Below, piece by piece: positions 2,247 through 50,987 of a stretch of DNA of 64,000 nt; positions within the stretch are counted from its first letter, which is position 1; every line of letters starts with the position of its first letter. The notes beneath the pieces are model-generated. The model worked only from the letters and a program-made list of their open reading frames with translations. It searched no databases and was not told the origin of the DNA. The DNA is from Candidatus Omnitrophota bacterium (GTDB taxonomy: Bacteria; Omnitrophota; Gorgyraeia; Gygaellales; JBFMHM01): positions 14,730 to 78,729 of the forward strand of contig JBFMHM010000005.1 of assembly GCA_040753015.1 (NCBI GenBank), read 5' to 3'. The position numbers and the translations under genes were made by a program.

Positions 2247-3288
2247 CTAACTGCTCCTTTTTTAATCCATATCGTTCTTTCGCCGCTTCTATAATTTTTG
2301 CGATTGTATCGCTAAAAGTTAAACCCATATATTCTGATACGAGTACAAACACATCCTCACAAGATAAGCTCGGCAAAGGATTAATTTCTAAGACAAAAGG
2401 ATTATTATTTTCATCAATCCTAAAATCAACCCTGCCGAAATCCCGGCATTCAACTGCATTATAGGTTAAAAGAGCATACCTCTGCATTGTTTCATTAAGA
2501 ACTTTTGAAAAATCATTATCAAACACATATTCAACATTGTCTTTTTTATACTTTAGATAATCATGTGTATAAAATTTATCTTTTAAATTAGACTGACCAT
2601 CAATTTTTATCTGTGATACCGGCAAAGCTTGTGCTTTATGTTTATTGCCAATAATCCCAACTGTCGCCTCTTTACCTGAAATAAATTCTTCAACTATCGC
2701 GGCCTGCTTATAGTTTATATTTACGTGCCTAATTCTTTTCTTAAGCTCATCAATGCTTGTTACCCTTGCGCTATCAGTTAGGCCTTTAGAAGAACCTTCG
2801 AAACGCGGCTTAACAATCATCGGAAAATTCATCCCTTTGATCTGATTATCAACGCTAGTTAAATCTTCTGCTTGAAAGAATTTTGGCGTCGGGATACCTT
2901 CGGCAACAAGAATTTTTTTTGTTAAGTATTTGTCTAGGGTCAGCCCTAAGGTTAAAGCATCTGCGCCAACAAATGGTATATCTTTTAGCTCAAGCAACAT
3001 GGGAACCTGAGATTCCCTATTCCTTCCTTTTGTCCCTTCACAGATATTAAAAACAAGATCAACGCCGAGGTTATTCAAACTAGAAATAACTCTATTAATA
3101 TTGCCAATTTTTTTAACTTTATAACCCAAAGACTCAATTGTCTTTGCCAAATTATCAATGGTCCCTTCGCTATCAAATTCGGCATTTATATCTTCGGGAT
3201 CGCCGATATTTGGCTTATAATCTGCTTTTAAATCAAAAGTTATTCCAATTGTATCTACCATAATATAAGATTTATAGAAAAAGCTCAT
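2224..3288 (-). CDS. ATP-grasp ligase of the D-alanine--D-alanine ligase family, translationally coupled to kamA
   Basis: Ddl-like N-terminal and ATP-grasp segments. The 3' end overlaps the kamA start by 23 nt. The annotated ATG sits inside a hairpin stem (3281-3306), so an alternative start at 3261 (MVDTIGITF) is possible. Confidence 0.65.
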   Translation of the reverse strand: MSFFYKSYIMVDTIGITFDLKADYKPNIGDPEDINAEFDSEGTIDNLAKTIESLGYKVKKIGNINRVISSLNNLGVDLVFNICEGTKGRNRESQVPMLLELKDIPFVGADALTLGLTLDKYLTKKILVAEGIPTPKFFQAEDLTSVDNQIKGMNFPMIVKPRFEGSSKGLTDSARVTSIDELKKRIRHVNINYKQAAIVEEFISGKEATVGIIGNKHKAQALPVSQIKIDGQSNLKDKFYTHDYLKYKKDNVEYVFDNDFSKVLNETMQRYALLTYNAVECRDFGRVDFRIDENNNPFVLEINPLPSLSCEDVFVLVSEYMGLTFSDTIAKIIEAAKERYGLKKEQLVAKTGNS

Positions 3289-3395: not shown

Positions 3396-4028
3396 TTAAT
3401 TAACAAACGGGCTCCTTACATCAATTCCTAAAATATTAATCCTATCAAATATATCCTTTGTATTTTTAAATTGGACTGCGTATAAACCGAGTTTGCCTGC
3501 AGCTTCGATTAAATCTTTCCGATCATCAATATATATTGTCTCGTCTGGCTTAGTCCCCAAAAATGCAAGTGCCCGCTTATAAATCGATGGATGTGGCTTA
3601 ACCATATTCATCTCAAAAGAAAGGATCTTATATGTAAAATCGAAAATAAAATAATATTTTTCCTTTAAATAATCATAATGTAGTTTATTTATATTCGAAA
3701 GCACAAGTATAGGAAATTTTTTATTAAGTTCCTGTGCTAAGGATAAAATTAGAGCGTTCTCTTCACTGAAATAAAAAATTTCGTTCCAAATTTTTACAAA
3801 TTCATCGTAGGAAATTTCACAATTTAATCTTTTTTTAACTTCCATATAAAATTCGAAAGGCATAATTTTACCTTCTTCAAAAGACCTAGTAAGATCAGAA
3901 TCAAAAAAAAGATTATAAATATATTCTGAGTCCATATTTTTTATTAGGGGGGCTATCCGGCTTACTGCGATATTATGATCAAAATTAATCAAAACATTGC
4001 CTAAATCAAAAATAAATCCTTTAACCAT
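3396..4028 (-). CDS. HAD-superfamily hydrolase (subfamily IA-like)
   Basis: N-terminal FIFDLGNVLI HAD motif I and a C-terminal DDR motif. Length is 210 aa. Confidence 0.65.
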   Translation of the reverse strand: MVKGFIFDLGNVLINFDHNIAVSRIAPLIKNMDSEYIYNLFFDSDLTRSFEEGKIMPFEFYMEVKKRLNCEISYDEFVKIWNEIFYFSEENALILSLAQELNKKFPILVLSNINKLHYDYLKEKYYFIFDFTYKILSFEMNMVKPHPSIYKRALAFLGTKPDETIYIDDRKDLIEAAGKLGLYAVQFKNTKDIFDRINILGIDVRSPFVN

Positions 4029-4999
4029 TAATTTCCTCTTGGTTTTTGTTTCTTAAATAAATCTAAAAATCTGTCTTCATATTCTTTATAAATACCCCAT
4101 TTATCTAATTCTTGTTTTAAGATAGTCGCGTTTTTTAAATCTTTTTTTGCTTCTTCAAATAATTGCTCAATTCTTAATTTAACAGATTGCGGTAAATTTG
4201 TATATTGGCCCAGAGTATATTTTAAATGCTCAATTTCTTCGTCGCCTATCGGTGGAGGTGCAGAACCGCCTCCTTTTAAAAAATCAATTAATTGTTCTAT
4301 CTGGCCCTGGATTTCCTGTGCCTGCATTTCCAAGTCTTTTAAGCTAATATTTATTGAAAGCATGCTCATTAAAATTTCTAATATCGCAATAGCGGCCCTT
4401 GGATTCTCGAGTTGTACAGCATACAGAGGTATTTCGCCTAGTAGGCAAACTCCTTTTATCCCTCTTTTTTTAGCCATGCCCAAAAATAAACCATTCATCC
4501 CGCTTACATGCCCCTCTTTCATAAATTTTACATTATACTTTCCAAATATATCAATTAATTCTTTATCTGTAACTGCTGCCCAAACATTCGGCTTTGTTAA
4601 ATGATCTATAGGCAAAGGCATAGCAGCAAAACTAAATATTATTTTTATTTTTAATTGTATTATAAAATCAAGCAGTGCATCACAATAATTATTTGCAAAG
4701 ACTAAATCTGGCTGAGCATTACTAATAAATACTACTAAATCATTTGAACCGGCTTTATTTTTATAGACAAAAAATTTACTGTAAGGCAATTCTGTTAAAT
4801 CTAATAGATCATTTTTTATTGTTACGCCTGTCGGATAAAAGAAACTTTCTGGGTTTAACACAAAAAATTCTTCCATCTTTAGCTTTTCAATTAAATTTAA
4901 AGCAACTTTATAAGCCACATCCCCCATTCCTGGCCAAGCAACTATAAGTATCGGATTTTTAAGTTTTAATCGGGGAAATTTATTTTTGTTTTTATCCAT
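4028..4999 (-). CDS. PAC2 (proteasome assembly chaperone 2)-like family protein with a C-terminal coiled-coil extension
   Basis: N-terminal ILIVAWPGMGDVAYKVA resembles the PAC2-family signature. Its stop overlaps the HAD gene start. Confidence 0.45.
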   Translation of the reverse strand: MDKNKNKFPRLKLKNPILIVAWPGMGDVAYKVALNLIEKLKMEEFFVLNPESFFYPTGVTIKNDLLDLTELPYSKFFVYKNKAGSNDLVVFISNAQPDLVFANNYCDALLDFIIQLKIKIIFSFAAMPLPIDHLTKPNVWAAVTDKELIDIFGKYNVKFMKEGHVSGMNGLFLGMAKKRGIKGVCLLGEIPLYAVQLENPRAAIAILEILMSMLSINISLKDLEMQAQEIQGQIEQLIDFLKGGGSAPPPIGDEEIEHLKYTLGQYTNLPQSVKLRIEQLFEEAKKDLKNATILKQELDKWGIYKEYEDRFLDLFKKQKPRGN

Positions 5000-5048
5000 A
5001 TGTTCTCCAAGATTAATAAAGGCATATCTTGCATTTATACCAAATTTT

Positions 5049-6302
5049 TTAGCGGATGCAAGTAATTTTCTTTATAATTTTATATCCTAAATATATAAAT
5101 AATAACTGCACGAGTATTGCAATCCTATATTTTAATATACCTAAGCTGCCAAATGCCCACACAACAACACCCCAAACAAGGGGCCCGATAATCGCCGAAG
5201 ATTTACCGGTAAGCCCTAACAAACCAAATATTTCTCCAACTTTTTCTTTTGGGCATAGATGTATCGCTAGCGCACGCGTAGAAACCCAAGTCGTACCAAG
5301 CGATATCCCGATTAGAGGCCCAATAAACCAAAAACATAATTTATTAAACGACACTGCGGCAAGGCCTAAACTAAGCATCCAAATTTTTAACATAAATTTT
5401 GTTGCTTTCAAAGAACCAAGCTTGTCTGTAACTACTCCAAATATAATTGAGCCAGCAGCGGCAAATATAGTAGACATAATAAAAAATGTGTGTATTTCAG
5501 AATCACTAAAACCCATTACCTTTTTTGTATATATTGCCATGAAAATAATAACTGTAGAGACAGCGTTAAGGAAAATAAACGAAGCGATTATAAAAGTACG
5601 CAACCCGGGGAAACTTTTAGTATCAATAAATGTCTGTTTAATCCTTAAAAAAGCACTCTTAAAGATACTTAAGTTTAAAAAATCACTTAGATTTATTTTA
5701 TTTTGTTCTCTCTCTTTAACAAATAAAAAGCATGGTAAAGCAAATAAAAAGAAATATATTGCTGTTGGGATAAATGCCGCGCGATAACCATACGATAAAA
5801 CGAAAGGTTTAACTAAAATCATTCCTGTGATCGCCCCAATATATCCTAAACTTACACCTACACCAGAAATTCTGCCCACATCAAAAGACTTAGAGACATC
5901 AAATAATAATGCATTATAAAATATTGCGCCTACTTGGTAGGCAAGATTTGCGACTGAAAAAAATATTAATCCCCAAAGCAGGCTATCTGAAATTCTAATC
6001 ATACCGGTAAATATACAACAAAGAATTGTAAAAAAAACTAAATATGGCATCTTTGACTTTTGTTTATCAGATACCGCTCCTAAAATTGGCTCTAATATTG
6101 CAGCAATAATCATCGAGGTTGAAAGTGCTAAACTATAATAAATGTCCTGTCCGCCTTTTTCTATAACTATCCAAAGAGCAAAATACAAGGTTACTATGTT
6201 CATCGAAAACATAGTATTAGCAAAATCATATAACCCCCAAGAAGCAATTGTCAGAATATTACGTAGGTGAATACCCAAATTATTTTTTATATTATTATTC
6301 AT
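5049..6302 (-). CDS. MFS transporter (UMF1/Atg22-like family)
   Basis: Multiple predicted TM helices and an N-terminal YDFANTMFS motif typical of the UMF1 family. Confidence 0.65.
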   Translation of the reverse strand: MNNNIKNNLGIHLRNILTIASWGLYDFANTMFSMNIVTLYFALWIVIEKGGQDIYYSLALSTSMIIAAILEPILGAVSDKQKSKMPYLVFFTILCCIFTGMIRISDSLLWGLIFFSVANLAYQVGAIFYNALLFDVSKSFDVGRISGVGVSLGYIGAITGMILVKPFVLSYGYRAAFIPTAIYFFLFALPCFLFVKEREQNKINLSDFLNLSIFKSAFLRIKQTFIDTKSFPGLRTFIIASFIFLNAVSTVIIFMAIYTKKVMGFSDSEIHTFFIMSTIFAAAGSIIFGVVTDKLGSLKATKFMLKIWMLSLGLAAVSFNKLCFWFIGPLIGISLGTTWVSTRALAIHLCPKEKVGEIFGLLGLTGKSSAIIGPLVWGVVVWAFGSLGILKYRIAILVQLLFIYLGYKIIKKITCIR

Positions 6303-36086: not shown

Positions 36087-36173
36087 TACAAGAATTAAGA
36101 TTTAAGAAAATCTTAAAACAAGATCTATGAAACAAAACTACAAGAATTAAGATTTAAGAAAATCTTAAAACAA
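36087..36173. repeat. Two perfect 35-bp direct repeats (tacaagaattaagatttaagaaaatcttaaaacaa), each containing a hairpin, immediately flanking the four-helix-bundle gene
   Basis: Copies at 36087-36121 and 36139-36173, identical by inspection. Each has the internal inverted repeat ttaagattt/aaatcttaa. Confidence 0.85.
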
Positions 36174-39399: not shown

Positions 39400-40008
39400 T
39401 CAAAAACCCAATACTTCTTCTAATTCAATCTTACTTTTAGTAATTTTACTACGGCCTACAGCGTTAGCCATTTGATCACCTAAATAAATTTTGATTATCC
39501 GTATCGTCTCCAAACATTGAGGAATCTTAACTTTTTCAAATAAATTTACGCGCTGAGTAGTAATGCGCATCTCCTGGCGTAACACTTCAACTCCTTTTTT
39601 AATAAATCTTAATTCTTCTTCTAGGCAAACCGTTGCTTTTATCGCTAAAATAGCATAGTCTACCCAAAGCGGAGCTAAAAATAAATCATACTCAATTGGT
39701 TTAAACTCACAGCTTTTTAAACAGGCAATATCAACGCCGGCGACATTTTTTGTATAGGTAATATTTTTCTCTAATTGGATAAATTTTTTTATATCAAAGT
39801 TGTCTGTAAAAATACCACTATACATCAAAACCTCTTTTTTCTTTTGAGCAAGCCTATGCTCTCTTTCTTCCAAAAGAGAAAGTTGCGCTAAAATTTCCAT
39901 CTGCAGTTGCTGCTTTTTTAATTGCAAAGTGGGCAGGTAACGCTCATATTGCCTTAAAGCGTCTTTTTGTTTTTTTAATTCGCCTTTAGTAAGCTTAATC
40001 TTTGCCAT
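39400..40008 (-). CDS. ntpD: V-type ATPase subunit D
   Basis: N-terminal KLTKGELKKQKDALRQYERYLPTLQLKKQQL matches the subunit D consensus. Length is 202 aa. Confidence 0.7.
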   Translation of the reverse strand: MAKIKLTKGELKKQKDALRQYERYLPTLQLKKQQLQMEILAQLSLLEEREHRLAQKKKEVLMYSGIFTDNFDIKKFIQLEKNITYTKNVAGVDIACLKSCEFKPIEYDLFLAPLWVDYAILAIKATVCLEEELRFIKKGVEVLRQEMRITTQRVNLFEKVKIPQCLETIRIIKIYLGDQMANAVGRSKITKSKIELEEVLGF

Positions 40009-40038
40009 TTGAGTAAATTATACCCATAAAATCAGTAC

Positions 40039-40980
40039 CTACCTTTTACGCTCTCTATTATCTTGGTAGGTTTTTACTGCCTCAAAGCTCGTCAACCAAT
40101 TTCTGCCTTCTTTATAAGCTTCAATCTTTCCTTGACGACAAAGTAAATTTAAATATTTTTCTGAATAGGGTGTAGTCTTTGCAATCACTGATAACAACAT
40201 AAATTTACCTTTACTGTCTTTTGCGCCAACTAGAGTTTTTAAGTAAAGATTAATTGAACGCTCAACTGCCTGTGCTATAAATCTTACAAATTGAATATAA
40301 TTTCCTTTATCAGCTTTTTCTAAACTATCATAATATTTTTTACGATCATTTTTTAAAATAACAATTAATGGATAGCCTTTTTGCATAAGTAATAAATTCA
40401 TTACTAAGCGGGCAGTACGCCCATTGCCATCGAAAAATGGGTGTATAAAAACAAGCTTGTGGTGGACTATTGTAGCTAACTCTATCGGGTGTAGCTTATT
40501 TTTATTTACTCTTATCCATTCTAATAAATCCTTCATTAATATAGGCACTTCAAATGCGTCTGGCGGCCTATGAGATGAACCAGTAATAATAACATTGCCC
40601 TTGCGATATACCCCAGCTTCTTTTGGCTCTGTATCTTTTATAACCAATTGCTGAAGGTTACGAATTAATATTTCAGAAAAAGTAGCTCGCTTCCCATGCT
40701 CAATTAATTCGTACAAATAATTAAGTGCTTCGTAATGATCTTTTGCCTCAAGGTGATCCTTTAAAGATTTACCCTTAATAGTAATACCTTCGTTAATAAT
40801 TAAATAGGTCTCTTTAAGTGTAAGCTTATTACCTTCAATCGCATTAGAATTATAAGTCATTTCAATAGCAAACTGCTCTCTAAGCTTTGCTACTTGCTCA
40901 GGAGATAAAGGGCGCAGCTTCTGCAACTCTTTGAGTTTTGAATCTACACGCTCTCTTAAATGATCCTCTAAATATTTCAT
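40039..40980 (-). CDS. Fic/Doc family protein (AMPylation-type fold) with a C-terminal winged-helix-like region
   Basis: Canonical Fic motif HPFFDGNGRTARL. Confidence 0.85.
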   Translation of the reverse strand: MKYLEDHLRERVDSKLKELQKLRPLSPEQVAKLREQFAIEMTYNSNAIEGNKLTLKETYLIINEGITIKGKSLKDHLEAKDHYEALNYLYELIEHGKRATFSEILIRNLQQLVIKDTEPKEAGVYRKGNVIITGSSHRPPDAFEVPILMKDLLEWIRVNKNKLHPIELATIVHHKLVFIHPFFDGNGRTARLVMNLLLMQKGYPLIVILKNDRKKYYDSLEKADKGNYIQFVRFIAQAVERSINLYLKTLVGAKDSKGKFMLLSVIAKTTPYSEKYLNLLCRQGKIEAYKEGRNWLTSFEAVKTYQDNRERKR

Positions 40981-41088
40981 TTTCTTAATATGGTATGGCT
41001 TACTTTTTCATAGTATACCATATTAGCATATTTGTGCAATAAATTTTATTTCCTCGGAAAAATCTGTTGCAGCTGTGCTTGTGGGATG

Positions 41089-41122
41089 TTTGCGGTAAGT
41101 ACTATTAGGATATCGCGTAGAT
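41089..41122. repeat. 34-bp direct repeat, copy 1 (tttgcggtaagtactattaggatatcgcgtagat); it begins a diverged duplicate of the 3' end of the giant gene
   Basis: Identical 34-mer at 41909-41942. In the giant gene's frame the copy-1 region reads ...NLRDILIVLTANIPQAQLQQIFPRK*, against the giant's C-terminus ...HLRDILIVLTANLSQIQLRQIFLRKN*. Confidence 0.8.
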
Positions 41123-41143
41123 TTAGATCGACAGAATAATAAT

Positions 41144-41497
41144 TTATGCTCTATTCTCTTGATTTATAATTTGTTGAACATCTTTCTGAAGAGCTGGAAT
41201 TTTTTTAACAACAACATCCCAGACAATATCATAATCTACACCAAAATAATCATGTATTAATACATCTCGCATACCAGCGATTGCCTTCCACTCTATATTG
41301 GGATATTTATGTTTTAATTCGTCGGGGATCTTTTTTGTAGCTTCTCCAATAATTTCTATACTACGGACAAAAGCCCTCTGTAATGTTTCATTGCAAATAA
41401 ATTTATCCCTATCTAATTCAATTGACTTATCTGTAAGATACTTTGTTTCTTCTAAAATATGAAATAGATATTCAATTCCGGGAAATGACATATTCAA
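41144..41497 (-). CDS. HepT-like HEPN-domain toxin (DUF86)
   Basis: Rx4-6H HEPN motif [10 protein letters not shown]. The gene overlaps the upstream mntA-like gene. Confidence 0.7.
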
Positions 41498-41777
41498 CTT
41501 CTCTCATAATATTTGGTTTAATATAAGGGCTCAATGATTCATTGGTTACTAATTCAATACGTTGCTTAAGTAAATCCTCTAATAAAAAAGAAAGATGCAC
41601 AAAATTATCAAATGTTTTTTTATCACGATAAAATTCTACCAACAGATCTATATCGCTCTGAACAGTTTGTTCTTTTCGCACAAACGATCCAAATAAACCA
41701 AGCTTTTTTACACCAAAAGTCTTAATTTTATCTTGATTATCTCTGATAATCGATAAAACATCTTCTTTGCCAAACAT
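41472..41777 (-). CDS. MntA-like nucleotidyltransferase antitoxin
   Basis: [23 protein letters not shown] minimal nucleotidyltransferase motif (GS...DxD). Confidence 0.8.
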
Positions 41778-41862
41778 AATATTTCACCTCTTTTAAGATT
41801 CATTATAATCTTTATTTGAAAAAATTAAAGATATTTTTTAATTTGGTTTTTTTATTCAAAAA

Positions 41863-44800
41863 CTAATTCTTCCTCAAAAAAATCTGGCGTAACTGAATTT
41901 GTGATAAATTTGCGGTAAGTACTATTAGGATATCGCGTAGATGTAGGTTAGTGGGAATATATTGTTCCTCTTCTTGGCGCAATATTTTTGCGATAGAAGA
42001 AATTGTTTTCTGCTTATCTGTAAGATTCACTTCAATTATATTCGTAACATCCGCGCTGGTTAAATTATCAATTGCCTGCGTCACAATTGGCAAATTTGTA
42101 AAATCTATACCACCTAATGGTGAGCCTGTCGAACCATCAATTCCGCCTGGCTCTTCGGGTGCATTAGCTACGGTTGTATCTCTTTTCGGCAAAGTGATTG
42201 TGTAAACTAAACTATTTTCGGCTTCGTCGTAAACTACATTTACGCCTCCTCCGTGCATTTGAATAATTTGCCATAATAAATCCATGCCAAGCCCTTTGCC
42301 TGCGTCTTCATCAGAATAATCTGTAATTTCGCCAGTTTGTTCTTTTGTTAAAAACATATTTTGCCGGTTAAAATGCGAGTTAGTTTCAGTTAATCGTCTA
42401 AGTTCTACACTTGGCGCAACTTTTTTGCATTTTACAGTTAACGTGTATCCAGAGCCGCTTTCTTCTAAACTAATTTCTGGCTTTTCACTGCCATGTTTTA
42501 TAGTATTACTAAAAATCCTTGATGTAGCAAAACTAAATAAATCTAGATCAGCATAAATATTTTGACTGCTTAAATCATCTGAATAAACAACATCTTTTCT
42601 TTCTACTCTGCGCCCACCTGTATGATATGAACTTAAATTATTAAATACAGAATCAAATAATCCACCTAAAGGAATTTTAGTTTTTTCAACTTCGTCACTG
42701 AATAACTTCTTTAAAAACGATAAACTTGTTCTTAATTGCTGGCTTTTGGTTTGCATTTTCTCATACTCTGCAATAAATCTTGTATCATTTATGTGAGATT
42801 CGCGCTCTGTTTCAATAATAGCTTCGATTTTATCGCAAGTATCTACTAAGCCATCAATTGCTTTGATTATTTCGGCTTTATACTCTGCTAAATACTCGAC
42901 AACATTTTTATCAATTAACATTGCATGTTTAATGGCGAGAAAATAGTCGTAGTAATTGTTAAATTTTTCTATAAGGGGATTTCTATCATCCCATTTCGAA
43001 TAATCTACTCTTAGAACAAGAGTATCATATTCTGCACGTAAAACAGCCATAATATGCGCAATTGGCATTTGGCCATGTCCTAATACAATGCGTAGACCAT
43101 AAAACACGCGCTCAAAGTCTAATTGTTCCTGGCTATAACTTTCACCAGATTGTAAATAAGCAATTATGCGTCTTAAACCTTGATTATATTGTTCTTTTAA
43201 ACTACCGGAAAGATGCTTTTCCTTGACATATTCAATCAATTCAGTAACTGTTGTTGGCTTATCCTCCTCACCACAAACACCCTCTCGTATTAGCCTTTCT
43301 CGCTCTTCTTCACTAAATCCAGCGGCTTTTAAAATATGGGCTTTTTGCCTAATTTCTTCTGGCGTGTATGCCTTATCTGGGTTGGGATGTTTAGCAGGCC
43401 TGCCATCTGGGTCAATTACATAACAATGCCCTTTCTCTTTACCAACCAAATGCGCTTTGACAATTGCATCAAGTTCTGTATCGCTGACCGTTCTACCTAA
43501 AACTTCCTCCGCGCGGAGTTTCAAGGACAAGCGTTCTAAGGTATTTATAACTTCATTTCCTACAATCACCCTCGATGTATACATTTTTCCTTCAAGATCT
43601 TGGAAGTAATCATGAAGATGGACCATGGTATCCGTTCTTGGATGTATCTCGTTTCCTAATAAACATGCATATAATTCATTAAGTATAAGATCTATGTTAT
43701 TTGGATTATATCCACCCACTGTATTCATAATTCTGATAAGCTTATATTGTTCATCAGGATCTACCTTATCCCATATTGTTTTGACACCATCTCTTATAAA
43801 AGGCTCAGTAAAATAAAGGCCATGGCGAAACTCATGGCGTACTACTTGCCCTCGCTCAGGAGAATCTTGAGCAACTGAGATAATAGCAATTGTTTTTGAG
43901 TGGCTAGGGACATATTTGCCATTCGTATATTTCATAAAACCGAATCGCAATAAGTCATCTTTTATTTTTAATTCTGTATCATTTAAAACAATGCCTTTCT
44001 TTTTAGCTTGCGTATAGAATTTACAGATATCCTCAATTCTAAAATCATACCCTATACCTTTTTTTTCTTCACCTTTATCATATGCCTCTTTTAAGCGTCG
44101 ATCATCTAATACGTTGCCTGCATTCGTATCTGATTCGGTAAAAACAGACAGCCTAAAAAAGGCATCATCTTGAAGGCCTGTTGTTGCAAATTCAATATGA
44201 AATATATCTTCATCGCTGACCTGATAAAATTTATATTTGTGATCTATTGGTAAACTAAGTTTCTCCAACTCAGCGACACGTATACTTTCAATTCCATCTG
44301 GTTTTGTAATGTCTGAAGTTAGAGCAACTTCTACTCTTTGTGATACTCTTTGCTCTTCGGCTAATACTGGTTTATTTCCAATACTAATTCCCAAAAATAA
44401 CGCTAGAGGAATTAAAAAACTTCGCCATCTTCCAATCTCAAATAATCTTGAAGTAGAAACCGACGTAGCGCTTGGCATATTCGCATAACGCGTCGTTCCA
44501 TAACGTAAATTATACGCAATAGAACAAATCTCCTCTCTCGTCAATCGCTCTAATGGTTCCTTTTCTTCAAACCATACTGCTAATTGTTCTTCTTTTCTCA
44601 TATCAGAAACTCTATCATCAGAATCAAAAATAAAACCGCCACCGAGCCTTTTATTGATTTCTTGAAAAAAACCATAACCCTCATTCACTACCTTATCTGA
44701 ATCATAAAAAACACCGTGCATACCTATAATAATGTTAACTAAAGCATAATATGGCGTAATTTCGGCTTCGGCGTAACGCGAGGTACCTTCAGAATTAGAA

Positions 44801-47800
44801 ACTCCTAACAATTCCCTCCGTTTGTGTTCTATTTCATGTTCTCGAGTCGAACGAATTATACTATCAGTAATCTCATCTATATCCTTCTCGCCAAATTCTC
44901 GTAAAAACATTTGAAAAATCTGCCAATTCAACGTAGATGAATTAGTTGAAAAGTTTCGGAATCTTCTTCTAGACATAAAATCATCTTTGTTTGTTATTAT
45001 TTCTTTAATATTTTGAGCATGCTCTCTACAAGCAGAAACATTAATAATTACAGCGTTTTCATTTGTGATGCACAGACCAAGCAGACGCCATTGATAAAAT
45101 GGCTCTAGAAAAACTACCCCTATTTTTCTCTTCTCTAATTTTACTAGTTCACAGTCAATAACGCTTCCTATTGTTACAATGTATCTACGATATGCACTAC
45201 GTGATAATATTCTCTCTACTACAGCTATATCTTTCTCCCCACAAACGCCTGTTCGAATTAGTTTATCTCCCTCTTCCATAGTAAAACGCTTATCTCGCAT
45301 AAGTATAGTTAATATAGCTTTAAGGTCTGCGCGTCTAAAAGCTTTGGCTTTTTCGGGATTTCTGGCAGGATTATCGTCTGAACCAATTACATAACTACGC
45401 CCTCTTCTTATGCCTTCTTCGTGCGCTTCTATAATTGCATCAAGCTGTTCCTCAGTAACACCGTCTTTCCATTTTACTGGGTCAAGTTCTTGTAATGCCT
45501 TGTTGGCTGCCTCTCGAAGGCCTTGACGTTCTGCGGTAGAAACTGTAGTAAGAGTTGCCGCGGATTGTCGCCCTGCTACCGCCACTACTCCATCGCCTGT
45601 TTGTAAATCGGCAGAATATACAGTTGAAAATACCATTAAACCTGTTAGGTCTCCTGAATAACTCTGACGCAATCCTCCTAACTTACTATATTCTCTATTC
45701 AACATAACACCTAAATCAGAAATAATTGCTCTTCTTGAATACATTCTTATTCCCATATCATAATCTCTTAGATCTTCCGCTGGTTTTTCTCTCCCATAAA
45801 ACCAACCTTGTTTATATAATGATAGTGCATATGATCCCTGAGTGATTTCTAATAAACCACAATCTACGCTTTTACCCCCCAGACTAGGAGCAATAAACCC
45901 TAAAGCATCCGGTTTCATTATTTTTTTATAATTTGATGTGACGCTATTTATATTCGTAACCGCGGGACTCAACCAAAAAACAACATCATATTCTACGCTA
46001 TGATCTTCGGCAAATTCATCATCCAATAATCTAGAAATACCGGTTATCCTATCATCACTAAGCTCTGTTAACTCAGAGTCAACGCAAGTAATATGTATAT
46101 TTGGATACTGCTCTTTTAATAAATCTCTTATTACTCTTCCTTCCAGTAAAGTAGGGCCGCAGCCAATAACCGCAATATTTAATTTTCTTTCTTTATCACT
46201 GCCAAATCTAGCTTTGATCAAATCAATAAGATTAGCCTCTATTGGCTTTGCGCTAAGCATCACTCTAACAGCTTGCCATTCACTTAAGGTAGAAAGATAT
46301 TGTTCAAAACCAGATGGATTTTTCATTCCTGCATTTGTTTCAATAAATCCTCTAACCACTCTTCCCAATACAGTATTAGATTTATCTTCATCTGGTTGCG
46401 CTATAGGATTAACCTGCCAATCTTTACCTCTGTTAAAGAATTGTTGGGTTAGTCCTATGGCGGCATAGTGGTCTAAATATTGGTCTGGAATATTTTCTAA
46501 AGCTTCGTGTAGGATATATTCATCAATTAAATCTTTTGGCAAGCCGGCTTGGCCTTCTTGGCTAAACAAATACCAAATTAAATTTACAGCTAAAGCACAA
46601 TTTGAGCCAAGGAAGTAGCGGTTAGAGAATTCTGCTCTTGCATTAAACCAGTTAAAATACTCGGGTGGAGAACGTAAACAAGCAAACACTCTTTTAACTT
46701 GCTCTGCTGGAATGTTACGAGCTTCAAGCAAGCGCCTTAATTCAGCTTCACGGCTAATTATTCTAGCAGCTCGTTTATTTACCAATCCAACTACAGATTG
46801 GCCTGCTGCTTTTACAGTCTCAGAGTCCTGCCTAATATCCGCCTCAATTTGTATTATCTCCTCTGCGCTGTATCCGCGGGCAATTTGACCAGAACCTTCA
46901 TCTTTACTATGTACCACCACCTGATCTCCACTCACGCTTACTCTTTTAAGATAATCTGCACCTTCTGGCACAAGACTGTCGCCTGCAGGCAAACAGGTTA
47001 CAGAACTACCGGTTATCGGATCAACTGCGCGCTCTCCAACTTGCGGTATTTGACTAATGTTAAATACCGCTCCTCCACTAGTATATGTGCGGATAATTTT
47101 AGCTTTTGCTGTGGGGATAACTTCTTTTATATTGTATTCGCCTTCTTTGAAGGATTTTTCGTATTGGCGATAGTAGGCATCTATTGACCAGGGAGTTTTT
47201 GAAGTGAGATTGGTTAAATCACCAGAATCTATTTTTAATTTATCTTTATGTCTTTCTTTAAACCACTGGGCAATGATTAGAGAATAATAGACTTGCCTTA
47301 AAGCAGCGTAACGTTTTGATGAATTAATTTCTTTGTTAAGTTTTGGGATGATTAGTTCTTTAATAAGCTGTGCAGAATAATCGTTCAAGATTTTATCATT
47401 TTGGTTGCTATCAAACTCCCCCTTTATCCCCCTCTTTGGCAAAGAGGGGGCCTGGGGGAGTTGTCGGTGTTCTGCTTCTAACATCACCTTCATTGTTGCT
47501 TTGTAAACATAGCAAGAACCTTTATTTTCAGCAATAATTATCTCATCAGGAACAATCCATGGGCGAAGAAGAGTGGGGATTTTAATTTTTGTTGCGCCTT
47601 GTTGTAACTCTTTTGCCTTTATAAATAGCTTATTCCAATATTCTTTACCTTCTTTTGTTTTAGGTGAGGTTAATTTAGCTGTATCTTGTTTTAACTGAAC
47701 GTCGGCTTCAAGAAGAATTCTACCAACATCAGTTTGAGCTAATCGTTCGTCAATAACATTATTTTGTTCATTAGGCCCTAAACCAGAGCTCACTTCGTTC

Positions 47801-48132
47801 GCACGATTCAGGGCAGGTCTTAAGTTTACCCAAAATGTTTTATTGGGAAGAGCTAAACCTACGAAAAAATAATTTAAGAGATTTTTTGTTTCGGATTGAA
47901 TTTGTTTATTGCTAGGATTATTGATACTGCCTTTATCTAAAAACAGCTTAAAGTTGTTGGTATCTGGAAGATAAGAAAGATAGCGCAAATGAATTGGGCG
48001 GAATGGTTGCCCCGAAAAACCCGTAAAGGCTTCACCTACGGGCCCCGGGGTTAACGTGTTTTGAAAACCATAACATAAGTTGTTAAAACAAAAAATCCCT
48101 GCTAATAATAAAGTAAATATCTTTTTAATCAT
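41863..48132 (-). CDS. Giant (2089 aa) multi-domain protein of unknown family. It has an N-terminal signal peptide, a second signal-peptide/TM-like segment near residue 1235, an internally duplicated ~80-aa module, an HExxH motif and a degenerate GHKL-ATPase-like C-terminus
   Basis: Single uninterrupted ORF. N-terminal MIKKIFTLLLAGIFCFNNLCYG. Internal MPSATSVSTSRLFEIGRWRSFLIPLALFLGISIG. Module copies around TEEQLDAIIEAHEEGIRRGRSYVIGSDDNPA...LIRTGVCGEKD and SDTELDAIVKAHLVGKEKGHCYVIDPDGRPA...LIREGVCGEED. VVRHEFRHG. C-terminal IFSNTIKHG...DAGKGLGMDLLWQIIQMHGGGVNVVYDEAENSLVYTITLP. Confidence 0.5.
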   Translation of the reverse strand: MIKKIFTLLLAGIFCFNNLCYGFQNTLTPGPVGEAFTGFSGQPFRPIHLRYLSYLPDTNNFKLFLDKGSINNPSNKQIQSETKNLLNYFFVGLALPNKTFWVNLRPALNRANEVSSGLGPNEQNNVIDERLAQTDVGRILLEADVQLKQDTAKLTSPKTKEGKEYWNKLFIKAKELQQGATKIKIPTLLRPWIVPDEIIIAENKGSCYVYKATMKVMLEAEHRQLPQAPSLPKRGIKGEFDSNQNDKILNDYSAQLIKELIIPKLNKEINSSKRYAALRQVYYSLIIAQWFKERHKDKLKIDSGDLTNLTSKTPWSIDAYYRQYEKSFKEGEYNIKEVIPTAKAKIIRTYTSGGAVFNISQIPQVGERAVDPITGSSVTCLPAGDSLVPEGADYLKRVSVSGDQVVVHSKDEGSGQIARGYSAEEIIQIEADIRQDSETVKAAGQSVVGLVNKRAARIISREAELRRLLEARNIPAEQVKRVFACLRSPPEYFNWFNARAEFSNRYFLGSNCALAVNLIWYLFSQEGQAGLPKDLIDEYILHEALENIPDQYLDHYAAIGLTQQFFNRGKDWQVNPIAQPDEDKSNTVLGRVVRGFIETNAGMKNPSGFEQYLSTLSEWQAVRVMLSAKPIEANLIDLIKARFGSDKERKLNIAVIGCGPTLLEGRVIRDLLKEQYPNIHITCVDSELTELSDDRITGISRLLDDEFAEDHSVEYDVVFWLSPAVTNINSVTSNYKKIMKPDALGFIAPSLGGKSVDCGLLEITQGSYALSLYKQGWFYGREKPAEDLRDYDMGIRMYSRRAIISDLGVMLNREYSKLGGLRQSYSGDLTGLMVFSTVYSADLQTGDGVVAVAGRQSAATLTTVSTAERQGLREAANKALQELDPVKWKDGVTEEQLDAIIEAHEEGIRRGRSYVIGSDDNPARNPEKAKAFRRADLKAILTILMRDKRFTMEEGDKLIRTGVCGEKDIAVVERILSRSAYRRYIVTIGSVIDCELVKLEKRKIGVVFLEPFYQWRLLGLCITNENAVIINVSACREHAQNIKEIITNKDDFMSRRRFRNFSTNSSTLNWQIFQMFLREFGEKDIDEITDSIIRSTREHEIEHKRRELLGVSNSEGTSRYAEAEITPYYALVNIIIGMHGVFYDSDKVVNEGYGFFQEINKRLGGGFIFDSDDRVSDMRKEEQLAVWFEEKEPLERLTREEICSIAYNLRYGTTRYANMPSATSVSTSRLFEIGRWRSFLIPLALFLGISIGNKPVLAEEQRVSQRVEVALTSDITKPDGIESIRVAELEKLSLPIDHKYKFYQVSDEDIFHIEFATTGLQDDAFFRLSVFTESDTNAGNVLDDRRLKEAYDKGEEKKGIGYDFRIEDICKFYTQAKKKGIVLNDTELKIKDDLLRFGFMKYTNGKYVPSHSKTIAIISVAQDSPERGQVVRHEFRHGLYFTEPFIRDGVKTIWDKVDPDEQYKLIRIMNTVGGYNPNNIDLILNELYACLLGNEIHPRTDTMVHLHDYFQDLEGKMYTSRVIVGNEVINTLERLSLKLRAEEVLGRTVSDTELDAIVKAHLVGKEKGHCYVIDPDGRPAKHPNPDKAYTPEEIRQKAHILKAAGFSEEERERLIREGVCGEEDKPTTVTELIEYVKEKHLSGSLKEQYNQGLRRIIAYLQSGESYSQEQLDFERVFYGLRIVLGHGQMPIAHIMAVLRAEYDTLVLRVDYSKWDDRNPLIEKFNNYYDYFLAIKHAMLIDKNVVEYLAEYKAEIIKAIDGLVDTCDKIEAIIETERESHINDTRFIAEYEKMQTKSQQLRTSLSFLKKLFSDEVEKTKIPLGGLFDSVFNNLSSYHTGGRRVERKDVVYSDDLSSQNIYADLDLFSFATSRIFSNTIKHGSEKPEISLEESGSGYTLTVKCKKVAPSVELRRLTETNSHFNRQNMFLTKEQTGEITDYSDEDAGKGLGMDLLWQIIQMHGGGVNVVYDEAENSLVYTITLPKRDTTVANAPEEPGGIDGSTGSPLGGIDFTNLPIVTQAIDNLTSADVTNIIEVNLTDKQKTISSIAKILRQEEEQYIPTNLHLRDILIVLTANLSQIQLRQIFLRKN
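41909..41942. repeat. 34-bp direct repeat, copy 2, lying inside the last ~25 codons of the giant gene
   Basis: Identical to 41089-41122. Confidence 0.8.
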
Positions 48133-48198
48133 ATATAATAAGTATGCACTATGATAGGGGCAAATTCAAGGGTTTTGGGGCGAAAAATGTAAGCGCTT

Positions 48199-49011
48199 TC
48201 AGGATGTAGTTTTAACAAGCAATAGAATATTTTCTTTCGAGAATACTTCTAAATCTTTTTGTGTCTCAAGAAAATTTTCAATATCTTTTTTTACTTTATT
48301 CCAATCAGTATTTTCAATAGCCTTATATAAACAATCACGCCAGTTTTGCTCATTAGGAAATTCACCGCTATAACCAGTTTGCGTCAGAGAATTTTTAAGC
48401 AGAGCAAAATTAGGAGCTAGGCCTTTCCATTTAGACAAATACCAACCAATATCAAAAAAATCTCTACCCTTAGTATATTTTCTACTAAAAACAGCATGAA
48501 GCTTCCCGGCAAACAACGAAGAAAGGTCGTAAGATAAAAACATAATTGGGAAATATTTATTAATAATATCTTTCTTAGTAATTGCGCCTTTAGGAGGATT
48601 TGTATCTATATCAATCTTGATTGAGAATTTCTGGCTTTTAAGCGGAGAAATTCTTGCCTCATACAAGAGTTCCTCAAACTTTAGAAAAGCGCTATGGACT
48701 GTTTTTTGATCATTAAAGGAAACGGAAATTTTATACCCGGCTAGCACAAATTCCGATTTAATTTTCTCAATCAAATTAACAAAAGAATATTCTTTCTCTT
48801 TTTGTTCCAGAGAAAAATCTAGATCTTCTGAAAAACGCGGTAAATCATATAAAAACCGTAAAGCAGTCCCTCCTAAAAAAGCAGAATAACGAAAAAAACC
48901 TGCGTCATTTAGAATCTTTAAGGTATAGGCTTGAACATATTCCCGCATTGTATTCAGCTTCGCGCTTAGGCCTTCTTGTTTGGCAGCTAATTCTAAAGCA
49001 AATTCTTTCAT
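48199..49011 (-). CDS. AbiEii/AbiGii-family nucleotidyltransferase toxin (DUF1814)
   Basis: GGTALRFLYDLPRFSEDLDF signature. The gene overlaps the upstream AbiEi-like gene. Confidence 0.8.
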   Translation of the reverse strand: MKEFALELAAKQEGLSAKLNTMREYVQAYTLKILNDAGFFRYSAFLGGTALRFLYDLPRFSEDLDFSLEQKEKEYSFVNLIEKIKSEFVLAGYKISVSFNDQKTVHSAFLKFEELLYEARISPLKSQKFSIKIDIDTNPPKGAITKKDIINKYFPIMFLSYDLSSLFAGKLHAVFSRKYTKGRDFFDIGWYLSKWKGLAPNFALLKNSLTQTGYSGEFPNEQNWRDCLYKAIENTDWNKVKKDIENFLETQKDLEVFSKENILLLVKTTS

Positions 49012-49646
49012 AATAGTTTTTCTTTTTTAATTTCTAACTCGATATATTCTTTAATCATTTTTGCATCCCGTAAAATTCCCGGCTTATTAAATCTTTTTGC
49101 AAAAACAAATAGTTTTTCTAAATTAATTTTTTCAAGATTTTCTAATCTCAGTTCTTCAATGTAATCAAAAGAAACCTTAACTTCTCTTAGGTAAAAAAAA
49201 TCGAGCAAGGCTTTCTCGGGACAAGCAATGAAACCTGTTTGTTTATTTACTGTTACCGATTCATAGCCCCAAAATAAACTTTGTTTTATATGTCGGTAAT
49301 CAAAGATTCCTAACTTTGAAACAAACTTATAAGGCCGCTTTGTTGTAATACAGGTATAAATGCTAACAGCCTCAGGGATTAGATTATGGAATTCCAAAGC
49401 CTTTTCTAAACTAACATAAGAAGGACTTTTAACAATTGAAGCAAGATATGGTTCATAAATATCCAACTTTCTGTATGGCTTTGCTAAAATATAAATCCCT
49501 CTTCTAATTTGTATGAGTTTTCCTGATTTTCTCCAGCGATCAAGCTGCACCTTAACCGAACTAGGATTAACTACTCCAACAAGCAGCATTTCGCTATCGA
49601 TTACGGGTAAATTATCTGTGAGCTTAACAAATTCTTCCCATTTCAT
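49008..49646 (-). CDS. AbiEi-like antitoxin/transcriptional regulator (type IV TA, COG5340-like)
   Basis: 212 aa. Position immediately upstream of and overlapping the AbiEii gene. N-terminal wHTH-like segment. Confidence 0.6.
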   Translation of the reverse strand: MKWEEFVKLTDNLPVIDSEMLLVGVVNPSSVKVQLDRWRKSGKLIQIRRGIYILAKPYRKLDIYEPYLASIVKSPSYVSLEKALEFHNLIPEAVSIYTCITTKRPYKFVSKLGIFDYRHIKQSLFWGYESVTVNKQTGFIACPEKALLDFFYLREVKVSFDYIEELRLENLEKINLEKLFVFAKRFNKPGILRDAKMIKEYIELEIKKEKLL

Positions 49647-49697
49647 GGCAATATGTTAACATATTTGTTAACTTAATGCAATAAAAATTATTTAATT

Positions 49698-50987
49698 TTA
49701 TGGCCAGAATTTTTCAATCATCGATTTTTTGATGCCGGTTTCTTCGGGTAAGAAACATTTAGATAGAATTTGCCATCCCAGGTCGAGCGCTTTCTCTAAA
49801 GGAATGTTTACTTTTAAAGACATCATTTTATCCTCAAAAAGTTTTCCATAAGCAAGAAGCTTTTTGTCCCACTCACTCATTTGAAAACCCATTGCCTGTT
49901 TTTCCAGTGTTTGACGGTAACTGGCAAACAACTGAATCATTGTGTCCATTATAGTTCGGTGATCTTCGCGAGTTTTACCATTGACCTGTTGTTTTAAACG
50001 CGACAACGACCCAAATGGTTCGATTACAGAATTTTTAAGATAAAATTGTCCTTCAGTAATATAACCCGTATTATCGGGAACTGGATGCGTAATATCGTCA
50101 CCCGGCATCGTGGTTACAGCAAGAATTGTAATTGAACCAGCCCCTTCAAAATCAACCGCCTTTTCATAACGAAAAGCCATCTGGCTATAAAGATCACCAG
50201 GATAGCCTCTATTGGAAGGAATTTGCTCCATTGTAATTGAAACTTCTTTTAGCCCGTCGCAAAAATTTGTCATATCAGTTAATAGTACTAAAACTCTTTT
50301 CCCAGAGAGAGCAAACTGTTCAGCAACGGCTAAACTAATATCTGGCACAAGCAAGCATTCAACAATTGGGTCGCTAGCTGTATGGATAAAAAATATCGAA
50401 CGTGGAAGCGCTCCATATTCTTCTAGTGTATCTCGAAAGAAAAGATAATCATCGTGCTTTAAGCCCATTCCACCAAGGATAATAATATCTACCTCTGCTT
50501 GAATAGCAATCCTCGCTAAAAGCTCATTATATGGCTCACCAGCAATAGAAAATATAGGTAATTTTTGTGATTCTACGAAGGAATTAAAAACATCAATCAT
50601 AGGTATACCTGTACGAATCATTTTATTAGGAATAATCCTTTTAACTGGGTTAACAGATGGCCCGCCAATATCAACTAGATTTTCTTCAAGTTCTGGGCCT
50701 TTATCTATAGCGTTGCCTGCGCCGTTGAAAATCCTGCCTAAAAGATTATTTCCTGTAGATATTCTCATAGGGTGCCCTAAAAATTTTACTTTATCTCCAG
50801 TTGAAACACCGCGGGAACCGCTAAAAATTTGTAACGATACTCTTTTTTCTTCAATTCTAATCACTTGCGCCAAAGAAATCCCTTGCTTTGTATAAACTTG
50901 GGCAATTTCTGAATATCCTATTTGCTCTGCTTCAACCGTTATAACATCTCCGGCAATTTGAATAATATTTGTATAAATTTTATGCAC
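49698..50987 (-). CDS. ntpB: V-type ATPase subunit B (non-catalytic)
   Basis: 429 aa with the A/B-fold pattern and no canonical P-loop. Conserved [14 protein letters not shown]-type region. Confidence 0.85.

Follow-up and report, generated by a model that had tools for sequence, protein, structure and literature searches.

How does a gene come to have two ends, one of them stranded beyond a neighbouring toxin-antitoxin (TA) pair? This question is raised by a 64,000-nucleotide stretch of DNA from a Candidatus Omnitrophota bacterium (GenBank assembly GCA_040753015.1, contig JBFMHM010000005.1, positions 14,730 to 78,729 of the forward strand; the whole stretch is referred to as the window in the following), in which two perfect, directly repeated copies of a 34-bp core bracket an MntA/HepT gene pair. 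One copy is located within the 3' end of a large gene, the other in a short orphan fragment on the far side of the pair. The fragment is most likely a displaced or relic gene end left by recombination between genes of a protein family that is as yet undescribed, the TA pair being the cargo.

Two diverged versions of one gene end

The initial annotation, made from the sequence alone, had placed the core (TTTGCGGTAAGTACTATTAGGATATCGCGTAGAT) at 41089-41122 (copy 1) and 41909-41942 (copy 2). Both copies are confirmed and are the only ones in the window; no further copy was detected in the window with up to three mismatches allowed, nor in 100 shuffles. The minus strand is the coding strand for all genes around the repeat. 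Ungapped extension of the core yields a similarity of 96 nt with 77% identity (41031-41126 versus 41851-41946, spacing 820). Copy 2 is read in the frame of the 2089-aa open reading frame (ORF) of the large gene and lies inside its last 32 codons, which end ...YIPTNLHLRDILIVLTANLSQIQLRQIFLRKN*. For copy 1, an alternative C-terminus in the same frame and complete with stop codon had been proposed, and a protein-level match between the two ends over 31 residues (tblastn, E 4.7e-8) bears this out. The claim that two versions of the gene end bracket the TA pair likewise holds, genes with PF01909 and PF01934 domains being located between the copies. The gene-attached and the orphan version are designated v2 and v1, respectively (Table 1).

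Orphan v1 is matched by a hidden Markov model (HMM) of the family's C-terminal end (E 4.7e-8), and its homology sets in 3 nt past the hepT stop. Its frame lacks a start codon and is closed three codons upstream by a TAG inside the hepT end; v1 is an untranslated fragment. In the source record, which holds the proteins MEW5758839-MEW5758847 (locus tags AB1755_052xx), no annotation covers it; the numbering of the protein accessions passes without a gap from fic via hepT and mntA to the large gene. Searches of the region against Rfam gave no match up to E = 1, except for one chance match elsewhere, and no conserved structure, and no terminator was found between the genes here. The part by which the two ends differ is the 14-residue tail of a conserved helical domain. 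Copy 1 had been described as noticeably GC-richer, in agreement with a GC content 3' of the core of 0.44 in the orphan tip versus 0.30 in that of the gene copy; the TA pair has 0.30, as does the gene-attached tip, and the body of the large gene 0.37, to which the orphan tip is nearer.

The two ends are a mosaic, with identity dropping sharply on either side of the core. According to Nei-Gojobori counting, the proportions of synonymous (pS) and nonsynonymous (pN) differences amount to 0.66 and 0.31, respectively, in the 20 codons flanking the core, and pS reaches 0.78 in the 14 codons 3' of it. The 34-nt core itself is free of differences, and the 11-codon block that contains it (~9.7 synonymous sites) has a single change, at the 35th base. 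Shuffling the columns of the 116-column alignment (82 matches) produced an identical run of at least 34 nt in 3 out of 200,000 trials. Since synonymous sites outside the core are near saturation, the ends have long evolved apart as working gene ends. Judged by these substitution patterns, they are anciently diverged homologues which share one recently exchanged or recombined patch, the 34-bp identity marking the point of crossover or else a short tract of later gene conversion.

A family with conserved ends and variable middle

The large gene had been called giant; with 2089 aa it is large only and remains below the usage of the term for Omnitrophota, where giant denotes >10,000 aa. Its product comprises a signal-peptide-like N-terminus, a conserved N-terminal domain of ~380 aa (N-domain, encoded at 46990-48132), a variable middle that weakly matches HATPase_c, and a C-terminal domain (CTD); no toxin-domain match to Pfam was obtained for it. 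The final ~90 residues match the C-termini of otherwise unrelated proteins, among them a histidine kinase, a DnaJ protein and a PrmA-like methyltransferase, and their alignment defines a CTD of ~130 residues (GGIDF-x3-PIVTQ ... ERIKEY ... ILRQEEE ... LRDILVVLE ... IFLG) for which no model was found in Pfam or NCBIfam. A profile search of 1.84 billion representatives retrieved at least 1152 proteins with the CTD at E<=1e-3 (282 at E<=1e-30), and in nearly all of the 150 best matches the domain reaches almost to the C-terminus, leaving a few residues at most. The AlphaFold2 model of the CTD consists of four helices (pLDDT 77.5) and has no match among PDB folds at E<=0.001. HMMs built for the head and the end of the domain match the window protein at 1.3e-13 and 2.5e-21, respectively.

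The CTD is usually preceded by the conserved ~380-aa N-domain and a variable middle. Residues 1-400 of the window protein match 42 of the fetched loci with 44-56% identity, as well as L001 and L002, and the middles (0.1-3 kb-aa) are unrelated to each other. Several loci carry tandem family genes, with three in a row in L083 (5097-12680 and beyond) and further cases in L049, L066 and L081. The two complete genes of L083 share 78% aa identity in the N-domain and 86% in the CTD, their middles being unrelated. The first two 3' ends of this locus are 79% identical, with identical runs of 34 and 33 nt, and the identity continues beyond the stop for 60 nt, taking in a conserved terminator-like hairpin; the mosaic pattern of these sequences suggests gene conversion. 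No match to the CTD was obtained in viral contigs, and two published accounts of Omnitrophota giant genes make no mention of the CTD or of orphan ends. The family of the large gene, in which the ends are conserved and the middle varies, is undescribed; it looks like a recombination-driven system of variable surface or secreted proteins in Omnitrophota and other uncultured lineages. As a separate observation, L015 and L016 derive from one 28.6-kb metagenome contig (Ga0194126_10002705) with a CTD locus at both ends in inverted orientation, which may be a palindromic assembly artefact.

A second orphan end behind a different module

HMMs for the CTD head and the CTD end were scanned on six-frame translations of 80 metagenomic CTD loci (L012-L091) and the window, covering 84 CTD gene ends, 62 of which have at least 1 kb of downstream sequence. 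Fragments with a CTD end and no head were detected in three places only: the window, L068 and L069. L069 was rejected as a third orphan case. Here, a 1035-aa family gene is interrupted in its CTD-coding end by an insertion sequence of the IS630 family (HTH_32 and DDE_3 ORFs, 4417-5610), so that the final ~23 codons of the CTD now lie 1.2 kb downstream.

The orphans of the window and L068 both stand behind a two-gene module; none was found directly after a gene lacking a module among the 84 gene ends, nor did the scanned loci contain larger remnants, i.e. N-domain or CTD-head fragments. In L068, an unrelated contig from groundwater, the order is a family gene of 766 aa, an ORF of 86 aa, an overlapping one of 84 aa and the orphan CTD end. 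The 84-aa ORF has a weak, sub-threshold match to CopG/BrnA antitoxins; for the 86-aa ORF no match that would name it was found in Pfam, NCBIfam, PADLOC or PDB. This orphan is intact over ~56-61 codons and matches the CTD-end HMM better (E 4.6e-24) than the gene's own end. Its similarity to the latter forms a direct repeat of 130 nt (78% identity, spacing 812), with pS 0.685 and pN 0.10 over 43 codons and a longest identical run of 15 nt. As the differences are overwhelmingly synonymous, both copies were working gene ends until recently, and the shortness of the identical runs implies that a long core is dispensable for the layout. The layout of the window thus recurs elsewhere with a different payload. 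Both orphans (31 and ~56-61 codons) are shorter than the CTD.

Two candidate origins can be set aside at this point. Insertion of the TA pair with duplication of the target gene end, one of two origins suggested in the initial annotation, is ruled out, if read as an in-situ target-site duplication, by the synonymous saturation and by pN<pS, the values for L068 pointing the same way as those outside the core in the window. The view that the repeat represents a widespread intergenic motif is rejected, no other copy of the core having been found in the window or in 91 other loci.

Two-gene modules also occur next to family genes lacking orphans. TA modules lie directly 3' of family genes in L089 (HEPN and MNT), L091 (MNT) and L062 (Phd and ParE), and L073 has a two-gene module between two tandem family genes. 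As a further observation, L068 contains a second direct repeat (3145-3205 and 4234-4294; 61 nt, 79% identity) whose arms TTGCTTCGTCGC ... GCTCCTCGCAAT are conserved and whose hairpin propensity is weak (z ~ -1); it brackets the next module, a DUF6922 and AbiEii pair just downstream of the orphan, so that neighbouring modules of this locus are each bracketed by a repeat of their own.

Origin of the orphan end

The displaced orphan end, the other origin suggested initially, is the reading favoured here, and we hold it with middling confidence: a fragment consisting of a CTD end and the TA pair would have come from another family member, recombined via CTD homology and displaced the native end, which is now the orphan. 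The anatomy of the locus, the long separation of its two ends, the independent recurrence in L068 and the lack of att or attC features are observed; the donor and the order of events are inferred as follows. Before displacement, the recipient gene would have ended ...LRDILIVLTANIPQAQLQQIFPRK*, directly upstream of fic. The donor fragment would have comprised the CTD end of another family member together with mntA-hepT lying just downstream. Its anchor for recombination with the recipient gene would have been the CTD-coding sequence (~130 codons), the sole conserved sequence near the 3' end of family genes, and an illegitimate join at its far end would have taken place 7 codons upstream of the core. 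Another possibility is that a circle entered by a single crossover in the 34-bp identical patch. Either way, the gene would remain intact and would now end in the incoming, AT-rich v2. Beyond it would lie the TA pair and, immediately before fic, the recipient's former 31 final codons (v1) as an untranslated relic. A dedicated recombinase would be unnecessary, and the addiction property of the TA pair would favour its retention once in place. Subsequent recombination between the repeats would generate a deletion product in which the gene body is joined to the v1 tip (...CCCACTAACCTACAT + core + CATCCCACAAGCACAGCTG) and an excised circle in which hepT is joined to the v2 tip (...GAGCATAAATTATTATTCTGTCGATCTAAAT + core + TTTATCACAAATTCAG).

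Such homology-anchored acquisition accounts for several properties of the two loci. On this view, the position of both orphans behind a two-gene module and the lack of any directly after a gene are to be expected, as is their length below that of the CTD, since the second join has to fall 3' of the CTD anchor. The shared GC content of the gene-attached tip and the TA pair, as opposed to that of the orphan tip, is explained if the v2 tip arrived with the pair. The TA modules found directly 3' of family genes in L089, L091 and L062 imply that suitable donors exist, and the lack of a recombinase in the island around the large gene and of a hairpin in the repeat supports acquisition by recombinase-free means.

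Several findings weigh against this reading. Neither an empty site nor a donor was found in the searches for relatives, a cluster look-up across ~15 billion proteins returned each of the tested window proteins as a singleton at 90% identity, and the closest homologues of the large gene in a scan of genome contigs, the two loci L001 and L002, share ~50% identity in the N-domain only. The composition argument rests on 43-46 nt and the link between TA module and orphan formation on n=2, and the pN/pS ratio of the flanks in the window (0.47) is just marginally below 1. Moreover, the L083 paralogues display 3'-end identity of the same degree as well as 34- and 33-nt runs, so that the mosaic is equally expected from a neighbouring paralogue.

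This last point leads to the main alternative, possible though rather doubtful, namely that the orphan is the relic of a deleted tandem paralogue. The ancestral order would have been large gene, mntA-hepT, second family gene and fic; one deletion would have extended from just past the hepT stop to the last 31 codons of the second gene, and the 34-bp identity would be a gene-conversion tract. Deletion-derived gene remnants are commonplace in bacteria, and family genes are often arranged in tandem. The ends of the L083 paralogues, including the 60 nt past the stop, match the pattern of the window, and L073 demonstrates that the proposed ancestral state exists. However, the endpoint of such a deletion would be free to fall anywhere across a multi-kb gene, yet both orphans have fewer than 61 codons and are intact; no remnants of an N-domain or CTD head were seen, and no orphan was found directly behind a module-free gene, though most tandem pairs are directly adjacent. 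These points against the deletion rest on small numbers.

Retention of the orphan for a function of its own appears improbable. It could serve as a silent donor for gene conversion, as part of the fic promoter or operator, or as one arm of a deletion switch by which recombination between the repeats eliminates the TA pair and restores the v1 end. The mosaic identity does suggest ongoing conversion between family ends, the orphan adjoins the fic promoter region, and RecA-dependent deletion is possible between direct repeats of 34 bp at a distance of 820 bp. Against this, the variable tip, part of a helical tail, is just 14 residues long and gives no indication of diversifying selection, the region has neither an Rfam match nor a conserved structure, and each locus has one orphan rather than an array.

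Site-specific recombination at an att or attC site formed by the 34-bp core, with mntA-hepT as an 820-bp cassette that supplied a replacement 3' end and an integrase encoded elsewhere, is more improbable still. The sharp drop in identity on either side of the core would fit such a site, a unit of ~820 bp has the size of an integron cassette, TA cassettes are common in chromosomal integrons, and a gene kept intact by a replacement end is known from icd with phage 21 and e14. The integron- or att-type junction envisaged in the initial annotation was not borne out, however. Folding of both strands of both copies was no better than that of shuffled sequences (z 0.74, -0.32, 0.00 and 0.22), GTTRRRY and RYYYAAC boxes were not found by eye, and no integrase, transposase or resolvase was detected among the six island genes or 20 other ORFs tested. 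In addition, the core has just its two copies in the window and none in the 91 other loci, identical runs in L068 do not exceed 15 nt, and the CTD family is absent from viral contigs.

An assembly artefact, in which two strain variants were stitched in tandem at the shared 34-mer, is the least credible explanation and very hard to sustain: although the source is a metagenome-assembled genome known here from its assembly alone, the stretch of 21 nt that separates the hepT stop from the core is unique, which places the junction of hepT and orphan off the edge of the 34-mer and means that a CTD-end fragment directly behind hepT must be present in some real molecule. Moreover, metagenome assemblers commonly finish with k-mers longer than 34 nt, and L068, from another study and assembly, has the same layout with identical runs of at most 15 nt.

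Comparison with known systems

Resemblance to C-terminal cassette exchange in polymorphic toxin loci had been noted at the outset and applies in part: the topology agrees, but the tip is a 14-residue helical tail and the intervening genes form a self-contained TA pair. The orphan modules of rhs and cdiA loci are generally accepted to originate from an incoming module that recombines via a conserved stretch and displaces the old end, and recombination between the repeats can swap ends. The locus shares with them the succession of a large secreted-protein gene, small genes and a promoter-less fragment that repeats the last conserved stretch with a different tip. It differs in that the conserved element is the CTD itself and the variable part of the family its middle; a variable toxin tip is lacking, the C-terminus being a conserved four-helix domain that is found in at least 1152 representative clusters. 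In place of a cognate immunity gene there is an autonomous MntA/HepT pair (a TA-like pair in L068), followed by a single orphan, not an array, and then by fic.

Insertion of phage 21 or e14 into the 3' end of Escherichia coli icd supplies a mostly synonymous replacement end and leaves the original end as a distal pseudogene fragment. As in that case, the gene of the window is intact with an alternative end, a fragment of the original end marks the distal junction, and a short identical core is embedded in diverged homology; in contrast, no integrase is located next to the repeats, the insert comprises 820 bp with the TA pair only, and L068 manages without a long core. Likeness to an integron cassette consists in the ~0.8-kb unit, the TA pair with its own promoter and the bracketing direct repeats, whereas the repeats here are coding, form no attC-like hairpin, show no GTTRRRY box by eye and are not accompanied by intI, no recombinase domain having been detected among 28 ORFs scanned, the six island genes included. 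The mechanism proposed here corresponds to homology-facilitated illegitimate recombination, in which one anchor and one illegitimate join suffice and a dedicated recombinase is not involved. It has been described for naturally transformable bacteria and, to our knowledge, shown experimentally only in Acinetobacter, Streptococcus and Pseudomonas; for the present locus, it is proposed from the anatomy alone.

Genomic context

The large gene, the TA pair and the orphan are part of a ~9.7-kb island (40008-49698) of six genes on the operon strand (AbiEi/AbiEii, the large gene, MntA/HepT and a SoFic-like fic), which interrupts a V-type ATPase operon (E-like, C-like, A, B ... D, I, K) between the genes for subunits B and D (Table 1). 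No repeat of at least 20 nt was found flanking the island.

Table 1 Features of the locus in window coordinates
Feature	Coordinates	Strand	Remarks
V-ATPase flank, atpD	39400-40008		border of island
fic, SoFic-like	40039..40980	-	directly downstream of orphan; product HTH-bearing (helix-turn-helix)
v1, orphan unit	41031..41141	-	31 codons YYSVDLN-LRDILIVLTAN-IPQAQLQQIFPRK*; stop 41046-41048; plus ~15 nt 3' of stop
Core copy 1	41089..41122	-	inside orphan fragment
hepT	41144..41497	-	HEPN RNase toxin; annotated product 115 aa, ATG at 41491; Rx4H motif RDVLIH
mntA	41472..41777	-	101 aa; MNT nucleotidyltransferase antitoxin; GS-x10-DxD motif
v2, gene-attached unit	41851..41961	-	32 final codons YIPTNLH-LRDILIVLTAN-LSQIQLRQIFLRKN*; stop 41863-41865; plus ~12 nt 3' of stop
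Large family gene	41863..48132	-	2089 aa; MEW5758843.1; annotated 'hypothetical protein'
CTD of large gene	41866..42126	-	~36-residue internal deletion; 4 helices predicted; repeat spans helices 3 and 4
Core copy 2	41909..41942	-	inside large gene, codons LRDILIVLTAN
AbiEii	48199-49011	-	pair with AbiEi, upstream of large gene
AbiEi	49008-49646	-	pair with AbiEii, upstream of large gene
V-ATPase flank, atpB	49698-50987		border of island

The genes mntA and hepT are adjacent and overlapping on the same strand, the antitoxin gene coming first. MntA matches PF01909 (1.2e-13), PF18765 (1.7e-11) and PADLOC PDC-S09 (9.6e-36); HepT matches PF01934 (8.8e-27) over the whole profile and has 4291 homologues at E<=1e-10. 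By domains, motifs and gene order, they are predicted to function as an ordinary MntA/HepT (MNT/HEPN) type VII TA pair. For the Shewanella pair, neutralisation of HepT via MntA-catalysed adenylylation is reported as the established mechanism (PMC7641770).

Exact look-ups of the large protein, HepT, MntA, AtpA and P0011 returned no encoding contig, and the C-terminal 345 aa of the large protein had no match above 36% identity. The contexts of P0021 and P0014, whose HepT is 70-73% identical, contained no CTD gene and no comparable bracket, and the short repeats present were unrelated. Contexts of the closest HepT homologues have direct repeats unrelated to the CTD, in L003 perfect ones of 21 nt (3117-3137 and 3639-3659) and in L007 ones of 24 nt with 92% identity (3483-3506 and 4733-4756), which bracket a neighbouring 143-aa gene, or the TA pair and a 126-aa gene.

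The 65 nt between orphan and fic (40981-41045) contain promoter-like hexamers and a 9-nt perfect inverted repeat (ATATGGTAT N17 ATACCATAT). The latter overlaps a TATACT -10-like hexamer and may serve the HTH-bearing Fic protein as operator; ahead of abiEi, at ~49655-49672, there is a palindrome of similar kind, GTTAACAAATATGTTAAC. Elsewhere in the window, a perfect 35-nt direct repeat with an internal inverted repeat (TACAAGAATTAAGATTTAAGAAAATCTTAAAACAA; 36087-36121 and 36139-36173, spacing 52) is located between the gene for phosphoenolpyruvate carboxykinase (PEPCK) and a gene resembling those for 23S-rRNA intervening-sequence (IVS) proteins.

Implications for the protein family

Displaced or orphan gene ends are already known from rhs and cdi toxin loci and from integrase-driven insertions. 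New here is the presence of such a scar in an undescribed family, with an autonomous TA payload and no recombinase, which is a modest variation on a known theme. If the favoured reading is true, acquisition anchored in the CTD would provide a simple route for TA and defence modules of uncultured bacteria to spread along conserved gene ends while the target gene stays intact. A more far-reaching proposal, put forward as speculation that is unlikely to hold in full, is that CTD-coding 3' ends might act as portable landing pads, to which small modules such as TA pairs and defence genes are copied between family genes and between genomes. The modules would travel by ordinary CTD-anchored homologous recombination with no recombinase of their own, leave orphan ends as scars and loop out via the repeats, which would make this traffic a recombinase-free analogue of that of integron cassettes, tied to a tandem, middle-variable family of secreted proteins. 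The family itself is the more promising lead, and with it the idea that TA and defence modules might spread by way of its conserved ends.

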